64,000 nt of DNA from IMG/VR virus record IMGVR_UViG_3300045988_094081, positions 38,033 through 102,032 of that record. One strand, 5' to 3'. Source of the stretch: a virus. The translations under genes were made by a program, and so were the position numbers. The notes under the pieces are model-generated. The model had not been told where the DNA came from. It was given only the letters and a program-made list of their open reading frames with translations, and did no database searches. Of the stretch, positions 3,738-48,902 are shown piece by piece (the stretch's first letter is position 1; each line of letters begins with the position of its first letter).

Positions 3738-6581
3738 ATGAGATTACGAATCATAAAAAATCGTCCGATATTCGCTCCTGGCGGTAGTGTTCAGGATAAG
3801 AAACAGGATATTAATGTATCCTCTACTCAGTCTATTCTTGATTATGGAACGCCTGTTAATAAATGGGGTGAATCTGATATTCAGAATATATATATGCCTT
3901 CTGATGTGATTTTAGAAACAGAGGAGGGGGAGATAAATCCATTTAGTAGTATGCCTACATCCGATCCGTTTTTTGAAAACAATGATGCAGGATATGCAGG
4001 ATATCTCGCTGATAATAGGGGTATGGTTAAAAACGTAGAGAAATCAGTCGTTGATAATACAATGAATGTAGGTGGTGTTGATGCTGATTCCTCTAAAGAA
4101 AAACGTTCCCAAGATGGTAATCCTCTTGATCCTATGACTACCCCATATTATTCACCCGATCTAACCGGCAGAGCTCAAATGTTCGGTACAAGTCTTGGCC
4201 GGATAAGAGCCGGTAATAAGGTCGGTGCTAATGTGGCTCAAGCTGCCTTGTCTGGTGTTAGTTTAGGATTAGGTCTTACCCGTAATATCATGGGAGCTTC
4301 ATCTGCTGCGTATGCAGCCAGCAGAGACGAGCAGGCAGCGAGGGAAAAACTTGCCAAGGAGCGTCGTCAGCAATTCATCAAGTGGGAACGTGAAGGTGGT
4401 GGCGTGAATTTAGGTAACGGTCAGAAGATGGATACGTCTGATATGACCGGCGAATATATTTATCCTCTTCCCAAGTCTATGGAAGATGCTGCGAATGTAG
4501 AGATAGAGAAAGGCGAGTACGTGCTGACTCCTGACTCCGTAGGGCCTATGGAAGCCAAAGGGAACAGACATGAAAATGGTGGCACTCCGGTTGATTTGCC
4601 AGAGGCTTATATTGTTTCCGATTATCGTAAGATAGATGATGAGTTTGCCTCTTACGTTAGAGAAAATTATGGTATTAAGGCAACGTCAAAAGATACGTAT
4701 GCTACACTCCTTGATCGATATAAGAAGAAGATTGGTTTGTCTGATAAGTACGAAGATCAGGAGCGTGTATATAAGAGATTAGAGAAAAATGAAGATGTAA
4801 AAGACAAAAACACATCTAATCTTAATGCTTCTATTCTTTCCAAGTACGTCAATGAAAACCAGAAAGAGATAGACGAGCTTGAAGCACAATTTCGTTCTTT
4901 CGCTGAAATCGTTTATGGCAAACAGGAAGAATCTAAGCGTAACGAGAAGATGGATGCTTTTTTCAGGGATGGCGGGGTTGTTGATCTGAATCAGGTAAAG
5001 AAACAAGCTAAGGCTTTTAATATTGCAGAATCAGATGCTAAGAACTGGATATATGACGAGTATGTTAAGCAAACCAGGAAAATGGCTGAAGGTGGACCTA
5101 CTCAGAAGGAGCTGGAGGAACTTAGAAAGAATGCTATCGGCTACAATAAGCTTATCAATCAGTTATTTGGACGAACTCTTAATATGACTGTATCTGATGT
5201 TAGTGGTCGTGAGCAGATTCTTAATCCTGATTCCAGTGTCAATGCCAACCAGAATCTCCAACATAGAAGCAATTTAGGATACGGCAGGGTAAATGATAAG
5301 GCGGTATCTAATTTGCTCGACATAAACCGATGGGCTAACAAGTACAATACGGATGGTGATTTTGATACAGAAGGTTTCCAGAAAGGATACAACAGGCAAT
5401 TAAATGCATTGTGGGCGTTAGCTGATGTAGGTGCTATCACGAATGCTGATGCAGCCAAGAAATTCAGAGATGAGTACGGATTCTGGGGCCAGGATGCCGG
5501 AAGCTACGGAGGTAATCAGGCTTATAATTCATTTGCCGTAGATGATAAGTTTGGTCAGACAACAGCCACCCGTTCTTATTATGGATTGGACGTTGTTTCG
5601 GCAGAGCAAAAAAGATTGTTAAACGAAAAAGGGATAAAGAATTATGTTGACTTATTTGGTGATAAATCTGATGCCGCTAAGAAGATTCTGGGCTCCGATT
5701 ATAATAAGTTTGTTGCTTTAAGAGATAGTGGGTTAATGCCGGAAATAGACTTCGTTCTTGAGTCTGTTAAACCAGAAATGAAGCCTATTGAGGCCGGTCC
5801 CATAGCACCAGACCTTACACCGCCTAAGATTGGATCTCCTGGAAGGATAGAGGTAAAACCGAAAGCAAGTACGCCTGCGACTGCAACCGACACCGATACA
5901 GAGGAGGTGGTTGAAGACAACGGACCTAAAGGACAGGGCAGACCGGAGGCGTTCGGTCCTATCTTCCCGGAAATGCTAAGAACCCTTGACACTGGCTTGG
6001 AGATAGAAGGCCTGGAAAGACATCAGGCTCCGAGAATAGACCCGGTTCTTCAATCTGCTGATCAGTATATCAACGAGCTCAACCGTGCGACATCGGCTCA
6101 GTTAGACGCAGTAGGTGACGTGCCCGACTCCCAGCGGGCTGCTATTCTGGCTAATATGAACGCCATAGCTGGAAGCAATATAGCCAAGTATGTTAATGAA
6201 GTAAATTTCAATAACGCAAGGCAAATAAACGAAGCTGATAGGTTTAATGAAATGGCTTATGTTCAGACAGATGATAAGAACATAGCAGAAAGGCAACGTT
6301 ATGAATCTGGGTTGTTGAAAGCTATGGCTATAAGGGATGAAAATCTTGCTCGTTATTATGATAGTATAAACAGCGAGATACAGAATAAGTTTAATGTTCG
6401 TACATCGTTGAATACCATAGCTTCCATAGCCCCGAATATGAGAATGCTTCCAAGTGGTCAAATTATTTACGTTCAAGGCAATCAGGATGTGATGAATATG
6501 GGTGATTATTCTACACCTTATTTGAAGAGCTTGGAGGATGATGAAGAAGATAAATATAAAAAGAGAAGGAGAAATAGCTGA
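3738..6581 (+). CDS. Large virion-associated protein (about 947 aa). Function unknown; possibly a structural or ejection protein.
   Basis: The ORF-track start at 3723 is a GTG inside the -7 box, and the first ATG is at 3738. The stop overlaps the next gene's start (TGATG), indicating translational coupling. Confidence 0.65.
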   Translation: MRLRIIKNRPIFAPGGSVQDKKQDINVSSTQSILDYGTPVNKWGESDIQNIYMPSDVILETEEGEINPFSSMPTSDPFFENNDAGYAGYLADNRGMVKNVEKSVVDNTMNVGGVDADSSKEKRSQDGNPLDPMTTPYYSPDLTGRAQMFGTSLGRIRAGNKVGANVAQAALSGVSLGLGLTRNIMGASSAAYAASRDEQAAREKLAKERRQQFIKWEREGGGVNLGNGQKMDTSDMTGEYIYPLPKSMEDAANVEIEKGEYVLTPDSVGPMEAKGNRHENGGTPVDLPEAYIVSDYRKIDDEFASYVRENYGIKATSKDTYATLLDRYKKKIGLSDKYEDQERVYKRLEKNEDVKDKNTSNLNASILSKYVNENQKEIDELEAQFRSFAEIVYGKQEESKRNEKMDAFFRDGGVVDLNQVKKQAKAFNIAESDAKNWIYDEYVKQTRKMAEGGPTQKELEELRKNAIGYNKLINQLFGRTLNMTVSDVSGREQILNPDSSVNANQNLQHRSNLGYGRVNDKAVSNLLDINRWANKYNTDGDFDTEGFQKGYNRQLNALWALADVGAITNADAAKKFRDEYGFWGQDAGSYGGNQAYNSFAVDDKFGQTTATRSYYGLDVVSAEQKRLLNEKGIKNYVDLFGDKSDAAKKILGSDYNKFVALRDSGLMPEIDFVLESVKPEMKPIEAGPIAPDLTPPKIGSPGRIEVKPKASTPATATDTDTEEVVEDNGPKGQGRPEAFGPIFPEMLRTLDTGLEIEGLERHQAPRIDPVLQSADQYINELNRATSAQLDAVGDVPDSQRAAILANMNAIAGSNIAKYVNEVNFNNARQINEADRFNEMAYVQTDDKNIAERQRYESGLLKAMAIRDENLARYYDSINSEIQNKFNVRTSLNTIASIAPNMRMLPSGQIIYVQGNQDVMNMGDYSTPYLKSLEDDEEDKYKKRRRNS

Positions 6582-9607: not shown

Positions 9608-12600
9608 ATGGAAAATAAGGAACAGACATTGGTAGAGAAATCAGGTTTCTTACCATCTACTGGATTAAGAGGGTATAATGCCGTAGTTCCTACGCGATAT
9701 GAAGAAGAATCTTCTCTTATTGAGGGAGCAAAAAGAGAGATGGAGAGGATGAAAGTAGGTTCATATACTCCCCCGGTATCAGCCATAAATCCTGATGATG
9801 ATTCAGAAAAAGGGTCTGATATTAGCGGAATAGATACTTCTTTTGATGTAGACACATCTTTTTCTGGACTAAAATCGGCTCTGAATGGTGGAGATGATCC
9901 AAGAAAGAAGAAAGAGGAGTCTTATAATAAGTTAAATTCCATGATAAAATCTATTCAAGATAAATCAAGGAATACTTATTCTGGTAAACAAACGTCTTAT
10001 GGTGAGGTTATAGCTGGTAATCAACAGTCATCTGCTGTTGATTTTGGTGTATTTGGTAAAGGAAGAACTATTAAGTTAGATGAAGCATATGACTTTTTAT
10101 CCGATGGGAACATCGGTCTTGCAAAGTTTAAAAGTTATATGCCAGGAAGGGATAATGAAGATTATTACGGAAGAAGGCAAACTACTTGGAATAAGGCTGT
10201 TAATGGTATAGGGAAACTTGTCACAAAAACAGCATTATATGGTGTATCAGGAGTAGTAGGTATTATCCCGGCTGCGTATAATCTTATAAAGACTGGTACG
10301 TTATCTTCTGCATTTGACAATGATTTTACACGGACCATAAATGATATAGATGAAAGAATAAACCACTCTCTTCCTCATTATTATACAAGAGAAGAGCGTG
10401 ATATGGGATTTTTGCAGAGTCTTGGAACTGCAAATTTTATTTTTAATGATGTTATTGGAAATGGTCTATCGTTTACGACAGGAGCTATTCTGTCTGCCTA
10501 CCTTACAGGTGGGATGGGCGTGTCAAGTCTTGGAGCTGTTGGCGCTAAAGTAGGGATGAGAGTGGCCGGAAAGATGGCGGCGTCTAAGATTGCGGCAAGT
10601 GCTGTAAAATCAGCTTTTGGAGCGTATAGAGCAGGAGCGATGTACGGCAGGGCTATAGGTAATATGGCCAAGGTAGGAGTAAATACGTTCGTGGGCGCCG
10701 GCTGGGAGTCTGCCGTGGAGGCTCAGTCCTTCATGAAAGACTCTGAAAGTAAATACAAGGAATATTTTAAAAATATGTATGGTCGGAATCCTAATCAGTC
10801 TGAGATGGCTGAATTTAAGAGTTCTATTTCCGATACGGCAAATAGCATATTTTTAGCTAATATGGGTATAGTTGGATTATCCAATTATCTTCTTCTGGGA
10901 AAATATCTTGGAGTAGACACTGGTTTTGCTTCTAAATACATACCTGGATTAAAGGGTGTATCAAACACATATAGGGGATCAAAGAGTTTTGTAGATCGCT
11001 ATTTGTTTGGATTAGGGACTAAGAAGGTAGCGGGTGATGCTGGAAGATTACAGACGGTAAAAGCAAATTTATTCCAGAAATCCTTAGCTACTGTTTGGAA
11101 TGTATCTAAAAGACCCATATCTGAAGGTGTATGGGAGGAAGGCATGCAAGGTGTTGCTCAGCGCATGGGGGAAGATTTTATTAGATCAAGATATGATAAG
11201 ACGTATCTTGATGCTACGTCTTCTATAGTTGATTCTTTTTCTAAGGCCATAGCTGAACAATTTACAACCAAAGAAGGATTGAAAGAGATTGGCATAGGAG
11301 CCCTGATTGGTGGTTTATTTGGAGCCAGAAATGGTGCTTTTGGTTTATATGAAAGGAGAAATAAAGAGCGTACTATTAATACTGATGTTGAGAAATTTAA
11401 TAGTAATAATGCTTTTACTTCTCAATCTGTAAAAGACTCTATGCGAAATTTAGCCGAATTTAATGCTCAAATGAATGATCCTGAATCAGATTATTATTCT
11501 AAATTTGAATTATCTGACAGAATGGGAATGTTAGAGGATACGGCTAACAATTTCAGGTCAATGGTTAAAAGCCTTGACGAAAGTGAGTTGGCTTCTGAAA
11601 TGAAAGTAGATGAAGAAACTGTTAAAAAATACAAGGAAGATATTATAAAAGATTTTGATAAGAAGTTAGCCAATTATAAAAAAGCTTCTTCTTTTGCTGA
11701 GGCTATTACTGCTGAGACTTCATCCGATCTTTATCGATCTAATGTTGCTAATGCTGTGTTTAAGGGGTTGGATGCAGAGGATATAGCAATGGAAGCATCA
11801 AATGATATTGCTGATTATGTAAATGACAATAATTTGTTTGATGATATAAATACGTTTTATTCATTATCAAGTCAAGCTTTTGATACAGCTAATCAGTTAA
11901 GGGAATTGCGTAATGAGATCAATGATCTGAATGCTGAAATAGAGAGGTTGGCTACAACTCCGAGAAGAGTAGAGGATGGCAATGATACCGAAGCAGAGGC
12001 TATAAAACAAAAAACTATTAAATACGATAATCTTAATAAGGAATATAGAAGGTTGTCAGAAGATCTTCTTAGTAGTTATAAAGAAGTATTTTATTCTTTT
12101 GATCCTGGAGTATCAGCTCTTGAGTTGTTTAAATCCGAAACAATAACTGCTGAAGATATATTGAAGGCTTATGACTCTGTTGCTTCTTTAAGCACTTATA
12201 TCGAGAACAATAAGGGGAAGAAAGAAGCAGAGGATTTAAGAAAGATGGTGGTAAAATACCAGCAAGCTATTACCCAATATAAGGTTCTACGGTCATTCAT
12301 GAACTCCATGCAGGATAAGAAATTTATGAGACACGATTTTTCTTTATTCTCTAAGTTCTTAAATGATATAGTGTCATCCGATACCAAGCCTATAGAAAGT
12401 GATCGTTTTTATCAGAACCAGGAAGGAAACAATATCAGTTTAGATGAAAAAATAAATGAACTCCTGAATAATGGTGAAATAGATTCAGATGAGGCATTTA
12501 CAATGAAAGTATTTGGTCATTTAAATGATGGTATAATTCAGAAGCCGAAAGAGGATATATTGTCTGATTTTGATTATGAGTTGGCTATGGAAGATCTTTC

Positions 12601-43613: not shown

Positions 43614-43689
43614 AATGCTTGGTCAGTTCTTCTGGTTCTAAATCTTGTCCAAAATCCATGTTAAAAATATCGTAATTAGTAAAGCACTG

Positions 43690-43705
43690 TTCCTGCCGGC
43701 AGGAA
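43690..43705. promoter_or_regulatory. Perfect 16-bp palindrome TTCCTGCCGGCAGGAA, a candidate operator for a dimeric regulator, upstream of the gene starting at 43613
   Basis: Read directly. A second hairpin, GGCCCAAG-TGTAAC-CTTGGGCC, lies at 43738-43759 just after the flotillin stop. Confidence 0.4.
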
Positions 43706-43766
43706 ATCTATGAATGCTGCTTTTATTTCTTCAATTAGGCCCAAGTGTAACCTTGGGCCATTGTAT

Positions 43767-45467
43767 TTATTTTTTGTCATCTCCTTTTAATTTCTTTAAA
43801 GTATCTGCAATCGGAAGCTGATCAATGACTCCCAATGCCGGAGCGACGGTCTTAACAACATTGTTAAGGAAATTACCGGTACTGTTCTGACCGCCGTCAA
43901 ATACCGTGATATTTCCGAGGTTAATGTGCTCAAATGCCTTAACCTGTTCTCCGGCAATTTCTTTCCACTGATTAACCATCTTGTACTGGATGGCGATCTG
44001 AGGATTGGATTCTGCTGCTTCCACCATAGCCTTAAATCCGTCGGCTTCTGCCATTAACGACTTTTTCTTACCTTCGGCTTCTGCCTCCAGCTTCATCTGA
44101 ATAGCTTTTGCCTCTGCCTCAGCTTTTGCCAAATGTGCTGCTGCCTCAGCCTCAGCCCGGCGTTTGATCTTCTCGGCCTCGGCATCAGCTTGCAAGATAG
44201 CCTCTTCCTTCTGGGTTTCAGCCGGCACAATCTTTTCAGCCTTAAGCGCAGCCTGAACTTTCTTAGCCTTAGCTTCTTCCACTTCTTTGTCGGCAAGCTC
44301 TTTTGCCGTTTTTACAGCCGCTTCCGATTTAACTTTTTCTTCTCCGGCCTTCTTCTCTGATTGAGCTTTGATAATCTGTAGTTCTGATACTGACACAGCA
44401 ACCTCCTTCTGGGCATTGTTGTATCCTATAGACGCATTTTTCTCAGCCTCAGCCTTCTTAATCTGAGCTTCAGAGTCTTGTATTGCTATAGCTGCTTCCT
44501 TGTCAGCTTCAGCCTTATTCTTTCCGACTTCTTCCATCCTTTCAGCCTCGGCTTTATTTACTTCAAGTTCTGCCTTAGATCTTACGATCGCCGATTCCTT
44601 GTCGGTTAAAGTTTTTGCGATAACCGCAGCCCTGTCTCTATCTGCTTGAGCTACACCAATCTGTTTTTCTTTATCGGTTAAAGCCAAAGCTATTTCTTTT
44701 TCTTTCTTCGTTTCAGCTACTATTGTTTCCTTTTCTTTTTCAGTACAAGCAATTTGAATCTCTTGTTCTTTTTTGGTATTAGCCACAGCCGTTTCTTTCT
44801 CCTTCTGCTGTACAGCAATCTTAATAGCCCCCAGCTTCTCCTGTTCTTCGATATTAGCCTGTGCTTCGTTCAGAGCCCTACTTTCAGCCTCCTTACCAAG
44901 GTTCATAATATAACCGGCTTCGTCTCTAATGTCACTGATGTTGATGTTCAGGAGGTAAAGACCTAACTTGTTAAGCTCGTTATCAATGTTCTTTCTTGCC
45001 TTATCCAAAAACTCATCCCTGTCAGAATTAAGTTTTTCGATTGTCATTTCAGCAATAATCAAACGCATCTGACCGTAAACGATGTCCGTAATAAGATTTT
45101 CAGTAGATTCGGTATCCATTCCCAAAAGTCTTTCTGCCGCATTTTGCATGATCTCTGGATTTGTACTGATAGCTACTGTAATAGTCGTAGGAACATCTAC
45201 TCTAATATTCTGAGATGACAAAGCACCGGTAAGCTTGCAATCTATTTGCATAGGCTCCATTGACAAAACATCATAGCTTTGAATAATAGGCAAGACAAAT
45301 GCCGCTCCACCATGATATAATTTCGCCGATTTCTTTTCCCCACCTGTCTTACCATAAACGACCAAGACCTGATTAGGCTTACATCTACGATACCTTGATA
45401 AGACTCCGATGATTGTCAAAATAATCACTACAGCTAAGATAGCTGACACGTACATGATTGTTGTCAT
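43767..45467 (-). CDS. floT: FloT/YuaG-type flotillin (SPFH/band-7 family) with an N-terminal TM helix, SPFH domain, long Ala/Glu-rich coiled coil and conserved C-terminal tail
   Basis: GGAAFVLPIIQ...AAERLLGM and the C-terminal NLGNITVFDGG align with the B. subtilis FloT motifs GGGTFVLPVFQ, AAEQFLGK and ITVVDTGG. EA-repeat coiled coil present. Confidence 0.85.
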   Translation of the reverse strand: MTTIMYVSAILAVVIILTIIGVLSRYRRCKPNQVLVVYGKTGGEKKSAKLYHGGAAFVLPIIQSYDVLSMEPMQIDCKLTGALSSQNIRVDVPTTITVAISTNPEIMQNAAERLLGMDTESTENLITDIVYGQMRLIIAEMTIEKLNSDRDEFLDKARKNIDNELNKLGLYLLNINISDIRDEAGYIMNLGKEAESRALNEAQANIEEQEKLGAIKIAVQQKEKETAVANTKKEQEIQIACTEKEKETIVAETKKEKEIALALTDKEKQIGVAQADRDRAAVIAKTLTDKESAIVRSKAELEVNKAEAERMEEVGKNKAEADKEAAIAIQDSEAQIKKAEAEKNASIGYNNAQKEVAVSVSELQIIKAQSEKKAGEEKVKSEAAVKTAKELADKEVEEAKAKKVQAALKAEKIVPAETQKEEAILQADAEAEKIKRRAEAEAAAHLAKAEAEAKAIQMKLEAEAEGKKKSLMAEADGFKAMVEAAESNPQIAIQYKMVNQWKEIAGEQVKAFEHINLGNITVFDGGQNSTGNFLNNVVKTVAPALGVIDQLPIADTLKKLKGDDKK

Positions 45468-45499
45468 AACTTTTAAAATTTAATTGTTGATAAAAAAAA

Positions 45500-45994
45500 T
45501 TAGATACTTAATTCTCCTTCTTCGTATTTTATATTCACCTTGTCACCGTTTTTGTAATTTTTTCCAGACAAGCACCTCACTCTCATCTGTTCCTGTCTTC
45601 CATTTTTCGAAATATTTACCATATAATGATTCTTACCTGATCTAAATACTATCTCCGCCTCTCTGCCATTTAAATCTTCCGGACATTCGTACACCATTTC
45701 TTGTTTTAACTTAAGAAGTAACTTATATACGTAAAACAAAACGATAAAGAAAAATGACCCTATTACGATCCCTACTAAATGGGAACCCGAAAAGTACGTA
45801 GTCCAGCTATATCCAAGAATAAAATGTGTTATGCCTTTGAATGATATGATGTCCGACAAAGACATGCTTAAATCAGAAGCGTTATCAATGTCAATATCCG
45901 TATCCAGATCAGATCCTAATATCGACAATAAAAACTGTATAACAAAAGCAAATGACGCTATTAAAGCCATGCATAAAATTATATCATTTCCCAT
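45500..45994 (-). CDS. nfeD: NfeD-like (YuaF-type) membrane protein with a C-terminal OB-fold, the canonical operon partner of flotillins
   Basis: N-terminal TM helices plus a C-terminal beta-barrel region NGREAEIVFRSGKNHYMVNI...GDKVNIKYEEGELSI. It lies immediately upstream of the flotillin, matching the yuaF-floT arrangement. Confidence 0.65.
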   Translation of the reverse strand: MGNDIILCMALIASFAFVIQFLLSILGSDLDTDIDIDNASDLSMSLSDIISFKGITHFILGYSWTTYFSGSHLVGIVIGSFFFIVLFYVYKLLLKLKQEMVYECPEDLNGREAEIVFRSGKNHYMVNISKNGRQEQMRVRCLSGKNYKNGDKVNIKYEEGELSI

Positions 45995-46235
45995 ATCCTT
46001 CTGTTATTATTTTGTAAACAAGATCAGTCATATCTTTGATGGATTCTGTATCATAATCAATAATAACGATATTGAATTTTTGTTCCACCATCGCATCAAG
46101 CTCAATTCGATCAATAGAATCTAATCCAAGTTCTTTAAACGACACATCTTCTTCATGAACTATATCCATTTCCGAATTAAGAAACTGAGTAATAATTATA
46201 TCCTCTATTATCTTTCTAATTCTTACTTTTTCCAT
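45984..46235 (-). CDS. Acyl/peptidyl carrier protein-like small acidic protein with the LGLDSID phosphopantetheine-attachment motif
   Basis: FKELGLDSIDRIELDAMVEQKFNIVI aligns with E. coli ACP [27 protein letters not shown]. It overlaps both neighbours (11 and 13 nt), indicating translational coupling. Confidence 0.6.
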   Translation of the reverse strand: MEKVRIRKIIEDIIITQFLNSEMDIVHEEDVSFKELGLDSIDRIELDAMVEQKFNIVIIDYDTESIKDMTDLVYKIITEGYGK

Positions 46236-46936
46236 TGCTTTCTAATTTTGTTAAATAAATACGTTTTTATGTTTTTCAACCTCTCTTTGTCTGTTTCCGA
46301 ACTTCCGGTAAACAAATAATCCGGATTGCCTTTAGCCGGCGGCGTAGGCAATTTAGATACGGCAAACAACCAATCCATTTCCTTATTCTTCTTAGGCTCC
46401 AAATAAGGCTCGGTAGCGATCTTAAATTTTTCAGCTATTAGGTCAAAGAGCTTTGAGTTTTTAAGGTTCATATGGACTGAAAAAGCCTGAGAAGGCGGTT
46501 TCCATATGAAGTTACATAAGCTCATTGTGTAATCTCCTGACTCTGCTATATAAGATTCCGTTACTTGAAGTATGACCTCTTTCTTAAATGAAGTATTACC
46601 CATAAACCAACACAATCTGGATTCCGCTTCTTTTCTGCTGACACCTATGTCTTTTGAATATGATTCGTACATTCCTATCATAATCTTCAACGTTTCCAGA
46701 ACCTCGTCCGTCATTTCCGGTGTCTCTATATAATTCACAAAAGACGTTCCTTTGTTGGTTAATCTCATCACGCCTGATTTTAATTTCTCAACCAGGCCAA
46801 GCTCTATATATCTTCCAGCGTCTTCTTCCGGTATGGCTTCGATCATAACCGCATCCTTCTGTCTTATGGCAAGAAGATTAGCGAGATCATTAGGAGTCAT
46901 GTCTGATGCTGTAAGTTGTCTGAAATTGATGTACAT
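46223..46936 (-). CDS. Hypothetical protein (237 aa), first gene of the ACP-NfeD-flotillin coupled unit
   Basis: ORF. No PPTase or acyltransferase motifs could be confirmed. Confidence 0.5.
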   Translation of the reverse strand: MYINFRQLTASDMTPNDLANLLAIRQKDAVMIEAIPEEDAGRYIELGLVEKLKSGVMRLTNKGTSFVNYIETPEMTDEVLETLKIMIGMYESYSKDIGVSRKEAESRLCWFMGNTSFKKEVILQVTESYIAESGDYTMSLCNFIWKPPSQAFSVHMNLKNSKLFDLIAEKFKIATEPYLEPKKNKEMDWLFAVSKLPTPPAKGNPDYLFTGSSETDKERLKNIKTYLFNKIRKQWKK

Positions 46937-46938
46937 TC

Positions 46939-47145
46939 CTAATCAGCTTTAATGAAAATAACATCTCTATTATCCTCCCTCTCCGCGTGACTACACGGAC
47001 CTGCAATCACATCCACTGCCCCGCATGTAAAGTAATTGAATATACATCCTTCACATCCTGCATTTGGCGCCGTAGGTTCCACACATTTTAATCTCACAAG
47101 TCCGGCATCAAACACTTCTCCTACTTTAAATTCCTTCTTTTCCAT
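46939..47145 (-). CDS. Small Cys-rich protein (68 aa; CVEP...CEGCIF...CG...GPC)
   Basis: ORF with 6 Cys. Confidence 0.4.
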   Translation of the reverse strand: MEKKEFKVGEVFDAGLVRLKCVEPTAPNAGCEGCIFNYFTCGAVDVIAGPCSHAEREDNRDVIFIKAD

Positions 47146-47160: not shown

Positions 47161-47763
47161 TTAACTGTTGTACCCTTCTTTGATAATCGAATTTCTACCG
47201 GTAGATACCGACTGTCGAAGATCGTCATGTACAGAATCTACCGTAGAATACTTGTTTCTGGTTGTAAAAATAACTTCCAGCATCTCCTTGTAATCACCTA
47301 AAGCTACTTCGTATCTCGGATCCACTTTGGCTTTTCTTTCAGCCTCGGCATTACTTTTAGCCAGCTCTCGGTCGAGAAGGTCTTCTTTGATCCGGTCAGC
47401 AATCATATCAAGTTCTTTTTTAATAACTTCTCCTGCTGCCCGAAGTTGACCTTCTACGTCACCAAGCTGGTCTTGGACGGTACCTATTTCTTTCTTTAGA
47501 CGATCGTATTCGTTAATCATACCCATATCACCTGCATAACCAGAAAAGTCTTTGATTATTCTGGTCCCTTCTTTAAGAAGCTCAATGACTCGTCTTTTGC
47601 GTTCTCTGCTTATTAAAGACGGAAGACGATAATTCATATCCGCTACTGCTTTATCATGTATGGAGTTGATTAAAAACATCTCTCTTTCATCCCCTGCGAA
47701 CTCAGTAAGAACCAAAAGGAACTTACTTATCAGGTATTCGTTTTCTTCTACGGTAAGTCTCAT
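47161..47763 (-). CDS. Hypothetical coiled-coil protein (~200 aa; start taken at Met52 of the ORF-track frame to avoid overlap with the dnaB-like gene)
   Basis: The ORF-track start at 47916 would overlap the DnaB-like CDS by 139 nt. An internal ATG at 47763 follows KKKKR. Confidence 0.45.
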   Translation of the reverse strand: MRLTVEENEYLISKFLLVLTEFAGDEREMFLINSIHDKAVADMNYRLPSLISRERKRRVIELLKEGTRIIKDFSGYAGDMGMINEYDRLKKEIGTVQDQLGDVEGQLRAAGEVIKKELDMIADRIKEDLLDRELAKSNAEAERKAKVDPRYEVALGDYKEMLEVIFTTRNKYSTVDSVHDDLRQSVSTGRNSIIKEGYNS

Positions 47764-47777
47764 ACGTTTCTTTTTTT

Positions 47778-48902
47778 TTAATATACTGACTGTTCTTCCT
47801 TTACCTCTTGCTCTTGATCTTGATTGTTCGTAACGTCTTCCACAGTATAGAGCTTGGGCGGCGTCGGCGGCTGGTTGGGGTTCACGAACTTCGTCCCTCC
47901 CTCCCCGTACATCCATCCATGCCCCGGCAGGATCTCTGGGTGGATTGTATTAGTAAGCTCTTCCATACTAACTTGCCTTACCTTCAGTATATGATGAAAC
48001 ACCAGTCCGGCTGTCCTGAATGATGTTTTGTTTTCAGTTTTAAACCGGTCAAGAGTCTGATACCAGTCTTTCCCAAATATCATATACTTGTCCAGCCCGT
48101 ATCTGCGAGGATTATGCAAACCTATCATTAACGTACATAGTTGCCCCAGCGTATCAGACTGATAAAAGTCAGAAAGACGGGGAGGCTGCTCTTGAGGGCT
48201 TTTTATCCTTCCTTCTATCTCTCTGTTGAATTGGGATATGATGAGGAAAAATATGTTTTTATATACTAATTTAGCCTCGTTCATAACCGCCACCAAATCA
48301 TCTATAGCCGACTTAGGATCTAATCCCATTCTTTTTATCAAAGCAATATGATCGACTTTAAATATTATAAGACGTTTGTCTTTGTGTTTGGTAGCTATAT
48401 GATACACAGCCGCCTCAAACTCTTTTACCGTACACGGAGCATCGATGTATATTATATTATTTCTAATTTCACCTTGAAGGATTTCAAACATCCTCATCTC
48501 TTCTACTGTATTAGAATCTTGCCTTCTTAATATTTCAGGAGCCCGTTTTTTCATATCCTGGCTCATTCTGCGAAGAAGAAGATCTTGAGGATTCATTTCG
48601 AACTCGCAATTGACAAGAAAATAATCTTCTGCTTGCGGGTTGATCATCGGATTCATCACATTTTCCAATATCTTTTGGGCCACATACGATTTACCCACAG
48701 ATGGCCGAGCTCCTATGGCAATAGCATGCTGAGGGAAAATACCTCCAAGCAAAGCCTCATCAATATAATCGTATCCGGTTTTAGCGGGGATAAGCTCTCC
48801 CCGCCTGTATTTCAAGATATTCTCATACGCCTCCTCCATAACCTGTTTAGAGGTCTTGAATATCCTTCTTATATCTATCTTATTTGCTATCTCCTCGTGC
48901 AT
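47778..48902 (-). CDS. dnaB: DnaB-like replicative helicase (RecA-fold C-terminal domain)
   Basis: Walker A GARPSVGKS; the H4-like motif IISQFNREIEGR...QEQPPRLSDFYQSDTLGQLCTLMIGLHNP (DnaB SQLNR motif region). The ORF-track start at 48911 is GTG; the ATG is at 48902. Confidence 0.75.
   Translation of the reverse strand: MHEEIANKIDIRRIFKTSKQVMEEAYENILKYRRGELIPAKTGYDYIDEALLGGIFPQHAIAIGARPSVGKSYVAQKILENVMNPMINPQAEDYFLVNCEFEMNPQDLLLRRMSQDMKKRAPEILRRQDSNTVEEMRMFEILQGEIRNNIIYIDAPCTVKEFEAAVYHIATKHKDKRLIIFKVDHIALIKRMGLDPKSAIDDLVAVMNEAKLVYKNIFFLIISQFNREIEGRIKSPQEQPPRLSDFYQSDTLGQLCTLMIGLHNPRRYGLDKYMIFGKDWYQTLDRFKTENKTSFRTAGLVFHHILKVRQVSMEELTNTIHPEILPGHGWMYGEGGTKFVNPNQPPTPPKLYTVEDVTNNQDQEQEVKEEQSVY

Follow-up and report, generated by a model that had tools for sequence, protein, structure and literature searches.

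A putatively host-derived NfeD-like and flotillin gene pair in the replication module of a human-gut phage lineage

Bacterial flotillin genes usually occupy the second position of an operon, after nfeD (PMC11222466). The pairs yuaF-floT of Bacillus subtilis, yqiJ-yqiK of Escherichia coli and nfeD-floA of Staphylococcus aureus all have a gene for a membrane-anchored protein with an oligonucleotide/oligosaccharide-binding (OB) fold located just upstream of a gene for a flotillin, which consists of an SPFH domain and a coiled coil (PMC11222466). The OB-like domain of NfeD binds the coiled coil of FloA and stabilises its oligomers, and the resulting FloA-NfeD complex holds unfolded membrane proteins stable in an ATP-independent manner, a property that matters in cells under stress and depleted of ATP (PMC11222466). 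Analysis of the window, a stretch of 64,000 nucleotides (nt) of the virus record IMGVR_UViG_3300045988_094081, revealed a phage locus of the same kind, in which a gene for a putative membrane protein of 164 amino acids (aa) with a predicted OB fold immediately precedes a gene for a 566-aa flotillin. It differs from the three bacterial pairs in that the 164-aa protein has no Pfam NfeD match and the flotillin falls below the FloT equivalog cut-off. The pair is probably a host-derived auxiliary gene cassette and reveals no new kind of system.

The pair is part of a block of four consecutive genes on the minus strand. Counted from window position 1, the block comprises genes for a 237-aa protein (46223-46936), an 83-aa acyl carrier protein (ACP; 45984-46235), the putative 164-aa NfeD-like membrane protein (45500-45994) and the flotillin (43767-45467). 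The start of the ACP gene overlaps the end of the 237-aa gene by 13 nt, the NfeD-like gene overlaps the end of the ACP gene by 11 nt, and a 32-nt spacer (45468-45499, minus strand) separates the NfeD-like and flotillin genes; this arrangement, with the sizes given in the initial annotation, agrees exactly with the list of open reading frames (ORFs). The block is flanked by a DnaB-like helicase gene upstream and a PD-(D/E)XK exonuclease gene downstream. The 4.5 kb around it show 95.9% identity to phage csAssE-Sib (GenBank OR575929.1), a complete 151-kb human-gut phage genome in which the four products are annotated as flotillin family protein, transmembrane protein, acyl carrier protein and hypothetical protein. 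In IMG/VR, a scan with this flotillin as query confirmed a relative in 160 viral stretches, and the 80 of them that were retrieved are at least 96% identical and have conserved flanks. The major capsid protein of csAssE-Sib is nearest, among isolated phages, to those of Cellulophaga phages phi17:2 and phi4:1 (34%), and the phage is therefore referred to as belonging to a Bacteroidota-phage lineage and not as crAss-like. A crAss-like identity, first assumed from the name of the phage, was abandoned after the capsid search gave no crAss-like record.

The origin of the pair is indicated by its cellular relatives. The homology search with the flotillin was swamped by phage variants and reached two cellular contigs, on which two diverged flotillin matches are located amid housekeeping genes, each with a 165-aa ORF ahead of it that has no Pfam match. 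Both of these ORFs are full-length homologues of the 164-aa phage protein (37-39% identity; BLASTP E values of 3e-36 and 2e-39). A scan of one genome per species identified 80 loci in Bacteroidales (Phocaeicola, Bacteroides, Parabacteroides, Prevotella, Leyella and Xylanibacter), which together with the two metagenomic contigs make 82 loci. The chromosomal flotillins are 62-67% identical to the phage flotillin over the full length (one assembly-duplicated sequence was set aside), and a homologue of the NfeD-like protein, with 29-42% identity, is encoded directly upstream, at a distance of about 40 nt, in 81 of the 82 loci; in one example locus the NfeD-like match runs to about position 4674 and that to flotillin begins at 4716. 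No homologue of the ACP or of the 237-aa protein was detected within 5 kb of the host flotillin at the 82 loci, either by tblastn or with an ACP profile (0 matches).

The Bacteroidales operon, represented in Phocaeicola massiliensis and in Bacteroides, Parabacteroides and Prevotella species, has the same two genes as the phage locus, in the same order and with a short spacer, for which the 32 nt of the phage are the counterpart. This is also the canonical layout of bacterial nfeD-flotillin operons (PMC11222466). Because the host loci pair the 165-aa homologue with a flotillin and have no ACP nearby, the phage appears to have captured a two-gene operon from a Bacteroidales host, with gene order and short spacer retained. 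The phage flotillin does not exceed 62-67% identity to any of the sampled host genera, so the capture is probably not recent. Unlike the host operon, the phage copy is located in a replication module beside an ACP gene, its coiled coil is variable in length and its presence varies between strains. The relationship provides a clue that the host of this uncultured 150-kb phage belongs to the Bacteroidales. Based on these comparisons, a host origin of the pair and a mosaic structure of the locus are highly probable. The searchable library yielded no publication on this operon of the Bacteroidales.

The 566-aa protein passes the cut-offs of both Pfam Band_7 (PF01145; E=7.6e-26, 91.7 bits against a cut-off of 23.6) and Pfam Flot (PF15975; E=2.1e-9, 38 bits against a cut-off of 27), but its match to the NCBIfam FloT equivalog NF058507 (E=5e-42, 144.5 bits) is below the cut-off of 700. 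The description as FloT-like in the initial annotation thus holds at the level of the family and not of the equivalog, and the protein is predicted to be a member of the FloT/YqiK-type family, and no FloT equivalog or ortholog. Its translation begins with a hydrophobic stretch at about residues 4-24, presumably a membrane anchor, ahead of the SPFH/Band_7 domain (residues 30-211; 44835-45380). A central region rich in Glu, Ala and Lys (about residues 212-449; 44121-44834), presumed from the sequence to form a coiled coil, leads to the C-terminal Flot domain (residues 450-559; 43791-44120), all of these features being on the minus strand. In the phage population the homologues are 408-659 aa long. 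The variation lies in the central region, where stretches of 11, 22, 33 and up to 159 aa are deleted in frame at about residues 200-480, while the SPFH and Flot domains are unbroken in the length variants. Many of these deletions remove a multiple of 11 residues and so point to a hendecad-type repeat, although some of them are perhaps assembly artefacts. The phage and Bacteroidales flotillins share an invariant cysteine, Cys29 (45381-45383), located just past the N-terminal membrane anchor in the motif RYR[RK]CK. It is placed much like the juxtamembrane acylated cysteine of eukaryotic flotillin-1.

The product of the upstream gene had been annotated initially as a YuaF-like NfeD. The 164-aa protein gave no significant match in Pfam, NCBIfam, PHROG or PDB sequence searches, and nothing at E<=10 against Pfam NfeD (PF01957). 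Its AlphaFold model, with an overall predicted local distance difference test score (pLDDT) of 64 and about 80 in the C-terminal beta domain, comprises three long hydrophobic N-terminal helices (residues 2-26, 52-69 and 72-101; low pLDDT of 35-67), an acidic loop and a five-stranded OB-fold domain at about residues 110-164. The best PDB fold matches of this domain are NfeD domains (YuaF, PH1510-C and Cg NfeD). A word-index homology search with the protein returned the phage lineage only, and it was an exhaustive profile search that exposed the cellular family, with 233 cluster representatives mostly of 160-180 aa. Pfam NfeD was matched by one of the 66 scanned members (6e-5), and the family profile aligned with YuaF (2k14) at E=0.16 over the whole OB domain. 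The gene lies immediately upstream of that for flotillin in the phage as well as in all but one of the Bacteroidales loci. The protein is therefore called NfeD-like on account of its predicted fold, its architecture and its gene position, the sequence-profile test having failed; what stands of the YuaF-like assignment is fold, architecture and synteny, but no profile hidden Markov model matches the phage protein.

Ratios of nonsynonymous to synonymous substitution rates (dN/dS) within the species, calculated as means of non-independent pairwise comparisons against the window, are 0.031 for flotillin, the lowest value in the block, 0.044 for DnaB and 0.065 for the NfeD-like protein. In comparisons between sister species, where dS is saturated, the lowest dN (0.118) is that of flotillin; the sister species also keeps the NfeD-like and flotillin pair. 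The ORFs of the block are intact in all 81 loci retrieved via the flotillin gene. Loss of the pair was surveyed at 79 further conspecific loci, obtained by a scan with the 237-aa family out of 195 contigs and with a flank of 7 kb; several of these contigs are 136-154 kb long, near full genome length. The complete block is present in 53 of the 79 loci. In another 23 an ACP gene and a recognisable NfeD-like gene are found with no flotillin at the locus, one of these (L193) having a truncated NfeD-like gene. Locus L190 lacks the ACP, NfeD-like and flotillin genes, and L246 lacks the NfeD-like gene and contains only a remnant of flotillin (residues 445-566). The flotillin-less junctions are of at least three different forms, located in A/T-rich microhomology, and at these loci the next gene starts no more than about 55 nt past the NfeD-like stop. 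In-frame NfeD-flotillin fusion proteins, one of them from the sister species, represent further deletions. Flotillin therefore appears to be under strong purifying selection yet is deleted repeatedly in nature. A small ORF of 34 aa (43676-43780, minus strand), which overlaps the flotillin stop by 14 nt, disappears along with flotillin in the deletion variants, as seen at the deletion junctions; it encodes 50-52 aa in relatives (a 50-aa coding sequence in OR575929.1 and 52 aa in L083 and L092).

Pfam, NCBIfam, PHROG and PDB sequence searches with the 237-aa protein returned no significant match. Its fold consists of an N-terminal MarR-like winged helix and a helical C-terminal domain, with no enzyme fold. 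Homologues hold the same place in related phages at identities down to 36%, and the gene is likely a core gene of the replication module that adjoins the captured cassette and is not part of it. An IMG/VR scan with a reordered alignment of this protein again recovered mostly the same species. Comparison of the slot between the conserved 237-aa gene and the PDDEXK gene, in a wider clade of only about seven lineages, revealed several kinds of content: ACP, NfeD-like and flotillin genes in the window, L083, L092 and L097; an ACP-like gene, a DNA methylase gene and two radical-SAM genes in L085, L086 and L213; a single 101-aa ORF in L093; and two ORFs with no family match in L094. In L087 the 237-aa gene is followed by a 65-aa ORF and a gene for a DPBB protein. 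Consequently, the components do not co-occur throughout the related phages, in which the 237-aa gene is found with an ACP-like gene in the absence of NfeD and flotillin, or alone. The second of these contents, characteristic of a clade of about 154 kb (L085 6675-9946, L086 at the same coordinates, and L213 7675-10948), has the order ACP-like gene, DNA methylase, 98-aa ORF and two radical-SAM genes, and has the look of a different cargo set around an unmodifiable ACP, possibly one for DNA or nucleotide modification.

The 83-aa ACP is an acidic protein (isoelectric point of 4.35) of AcpP type with the motif LGLDS(I)D, in which the serine is residue 40. It scores 26.7 bits against Pfam PP-binding (PF00550; cut-off 20.8) and matches phrog_5934 'acyl carrier protein' (8.8e-8), and a profile of the phage ACPs matches solved type-II fatty acid synthase AcpP proteins at 2e-17 to 1e-15; with 29 bits it misses the cut-offs of 66-106 of the NCBIfam equivalogs (TIGR00517 and others). 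The serine of the GLDS motif is invariant in all 81 conspecific loci, and the initial prediction of a carrier protein with a phosphopantetheinylation motif is supported by both the family match and this residue. In contrast to its neighbours, with dN/dS of 0.03-0.065 and identities among conspecifics of 95-100%, the ACP has the highest dN/dS in the block (0.27 within species) and conspecific identities of 84-100%; its identity to the sister clade is 39%, compared to 82% for flotillin. In the ACP-like protein of a second clade, the carrier serine is replaced by Asp (LGFDDLD). The depositors' annotation of the related 151-kb genome names no phosphopantetheinyl transferase (PPTase), ligase or acyltransferase that could handle acyl groups, and phosphopantetheinylation of the predicted phage ACP would need the AcpS of the host. 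Phage ACPs of PHROG 5934 and 4154 (category 'moron, auxiliary metabolic gene and host takeover') are likewise small, acidic and AcpP-like with a DSL-type serine; unlike them, the ACP of this locus is fast-evolving, lacks an annotated partner enzyme and has an Asp version in the sister clade. It is probably an accessory gene of the variable slot, independent of flotillin.

SPFH proteins in phages have been mentioned in passing in the literature. Other SPFH-family membrane proteins of phages include phrog_200 'lipoprotein' and those of Vibrio phage KIT04, phage GIB1 and a Segatella Crassvirales genus, and they are at most 31% identical to the flotillin described here over the SPFH part. Such flotillin-like genes are rare among sequenced phages, with any tblastn match in 11 of 50,697 records, several of these being short unannotated fragments. 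The clearest other case is that of KIT04 (LC487410.1; L082 3929-5350), a T5-like vibriophage which encodes a 473-aa 'flotillin family protein' with 29% identity over the SPFH part; the ORF ahead of this gene, of 82 aa, matches no family. Three other phage flotillin-like cases were checked, and in none of them does a member of the NfeD-like family lie within 4 kb. Phage Perkons was considered as a precedent and rejected, its paper being concerned with integration into the host floA gene and not with a phage flotillin. The statement that the locus is not a described phage module is correct in so far as the searchable library contained no paper on a phage flotillin-NfeD pair, but the genes had been annotated, both in OR575929.1 and by JGI.

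The explanation that accounts best for the locus as a whole treats it as a mosaic and not as a four-gene machine, and in its full form it has somewhat better than an even chance. An ancestor of this Bacteroidota-infecting lineage would have copied the NfeD-like and flotillin operon off a Bacteroidales chromosome, and the pair would have entered the variable slot of the replication module, between the 237-aa winged-helix gene and the PD-(D/E)XK gene, a slot that in some lineages is already taken by an ACP gene. There the pair would be transcribed together with the leftward replication genes. The coding strand of the block has no terminator-like site, as would fit co-transcription alongside the replication genes, and a sigma-70 promoter scan of the block, with a model unsuited to Bacteroidota or phage promoters, performed no better than on shuffled sequence. 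Both proteins would enter the host inner membrane, where the OB domain of the NfeD-like protein could bind the flotillin coiled coil, and the complex could oligomerise to a flotillin scaffold adding to or mixing with that of the host. Such a scaffold may keep membrane proteins folded and the membrane organised in the stressed, energy-short infected cell, performing a kind of 'host-maintenance' function. The pair would be of benefit under some conditions only, and this would account for both its strong constraint and its repeated loss, while the ACP and the 237-aa protein would act apart from flotillin. Comparative data on the phage and host loci show the probable capture, the insertion into the slot, the repeated loss expected of a conditional benefit and the independence of the ACP and the 237-aa protein. 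The holdase or scaffold mechanism, which is modelled on known bacterial NfeD-flotillin pairs, is tentative, its probability being a little short of even.

Several observations weigh against this explanation. Loss in about a quarter of the sampled genomes is not obviously what one would expect of a 'host-maintenance' protein, and the NfeD-like gene outlasting flotillin hints at a role that it may have without the phage flotillin. The count of deletions derives from 79 of 195 contigs with 7 kb of flank, and a second copy of flotillin elsewhere in these genomes is possible. The low dN/dS values, for their part, come from pairwise means that are not independent of each other and all refer to the window.

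The main rival is that of hijack or interference, where the phage proteins co-assemble with the flotillin/NfeD complex of the host and alter its action. The effects might include superinfection exclusion, blunting of membrane-acting abortive-infection effectors, redirection of a membrane protease or secretion partner, or anchoring of phage complexes. This reading fits the retention of the NfeD-like gene after flotillin loss, since in 23 of 23 flotillin-less loci (one truncated) it is kept and could work with the host flotillin. Hetero-oligomers are plausible given the 62-67% identity between phage and host flotillins, the NfeD-like protein is far more diverged from its host counterpart (29-42%) than flotillin is, as would be the case with a retuned interface, and strain-variable presence is typical of conflict genes. 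However, the block gave no meaningful match to PADLOC defence models, no partner gene is evident in it, and a flotillin dN/dS of 0.03 carries no arms-race signature. Interference of this kind is considered unlikely.

A more novel reading is rather improbable. According to it, the diverged NfeD-like protein, alone or with the phage flotillin, would plug into the host scaffold as a takeover device, and not as a spare part, that redirects it to the needs of the phage or against its competitors. The ACP would act separately, either mimicking the host ACP and so perturbing lipid synthesis, or serving as the donor in an acylation.

The initial annotation regarded the 237-aa protein, ACP, NfeD and flotillin as one translationally coupled unit, with the carrier supplying an acyl or small-molecule modification to the microdomain machinery. 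The 13- and 11-nt overlaps are real, all four genes lie on one strand, uninterrupted by any terminator-like site, and the three lineages with flotillin have an invariant serine in the ACP where the flotillin-less one has Asp, only four lineages having been sampled. Nevertheless, patterns of co-occurrence, the host operon and the fold of the 237-aa protein are all contrary to a single functional unit with an ACP serving flotillin, which is very improbable. No ACP accompanies the host operon at the 82 loci, ACP-like genes exist apart from NfeD and flotillin, and 23 of the 79 conspecific loci have the ACP and NfeD-like genes but no flotillin. The 237-aa gene, in turn, exists apart from all three others and encodes a winged-helix protein and no enzyme fold, the annotation of the 151-kb genome contains no PPTase, ligase or acyltransferase, and the evolutionary rate of the ACP is decoupled from that of its neighbours.

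Still less credible is the possibility that the pair is a functionless passenger, host DNA of recent capture in the course of decay. Natural deletions and truncations are indeed frequent, but no locus retrieved via flotillin has a broken ORF in the block, dN/dS is 0.03-0.065, the coiled-coil indels remain in frame, and the pair is kept in the sister species at saturated dS, the 62-67% identity to host flotillins being at odds with a recent capture. Finally, it is next to impossible that the block is host DNA beside a prophage or a chimeric assembly: its genes do have clear cellular homologues, but the arrangement recurs in the complete 151-kb GenBank phage and in at least 80 independent viral contigs, and the block, correctly regarded as phage cargo from the start, is located deep in a phage genome with replication genes on both sides and an even nucleotide composition across the window.

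Other variation was observed in the neighbourhood of the block. A Cys-rich ORF of 68 aa (46939-47145, minus strand), located just upstream of the 237-aa gene, is hypervariable (47-100% identity, compared with 97-100% for the flanking genes), suggesting allele replacement or diversifying selection. The adjacent ORF of 251 aa (47161-47916, minus strand) overlaps the DnaB-like ORF by 139 nt; since the protein of relatives has 200 aa, translation probably begins in fact at the ATG of residue 52 (MRLTVEEN...). Some conspecific genomes, but not the window, contain a non-coding insertion of about 300 nt with a GGAGACC...GGTCTCC hairpin, which splits the start of a 119-aa gene (L179, about 10240-10540, and L253; the counterpart in the window is at about 43600). 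Rfam gave no match in the block or in this insertion. Genes of the IS605-family OrfB/TnpB (Cas12f-like) are located in related replication modules at differing sites (L083 13497-14288, L086 1592-2812 and L093 7044-8628); L093 also contains a Y1 transposase, and csAssE-Sib has two TnpB genes elsewhere in its genome.

Little is understood as yet of the flotillin-NfeD complexes of bacteria, and a phage lineage abundant in the human gut keeps what is probably a captured copy of such a pair under strong purifying selection. The coexistence of natural strains with and without flotillin offers near-isogenic comparisons for the contribution of the scaffold to infection.

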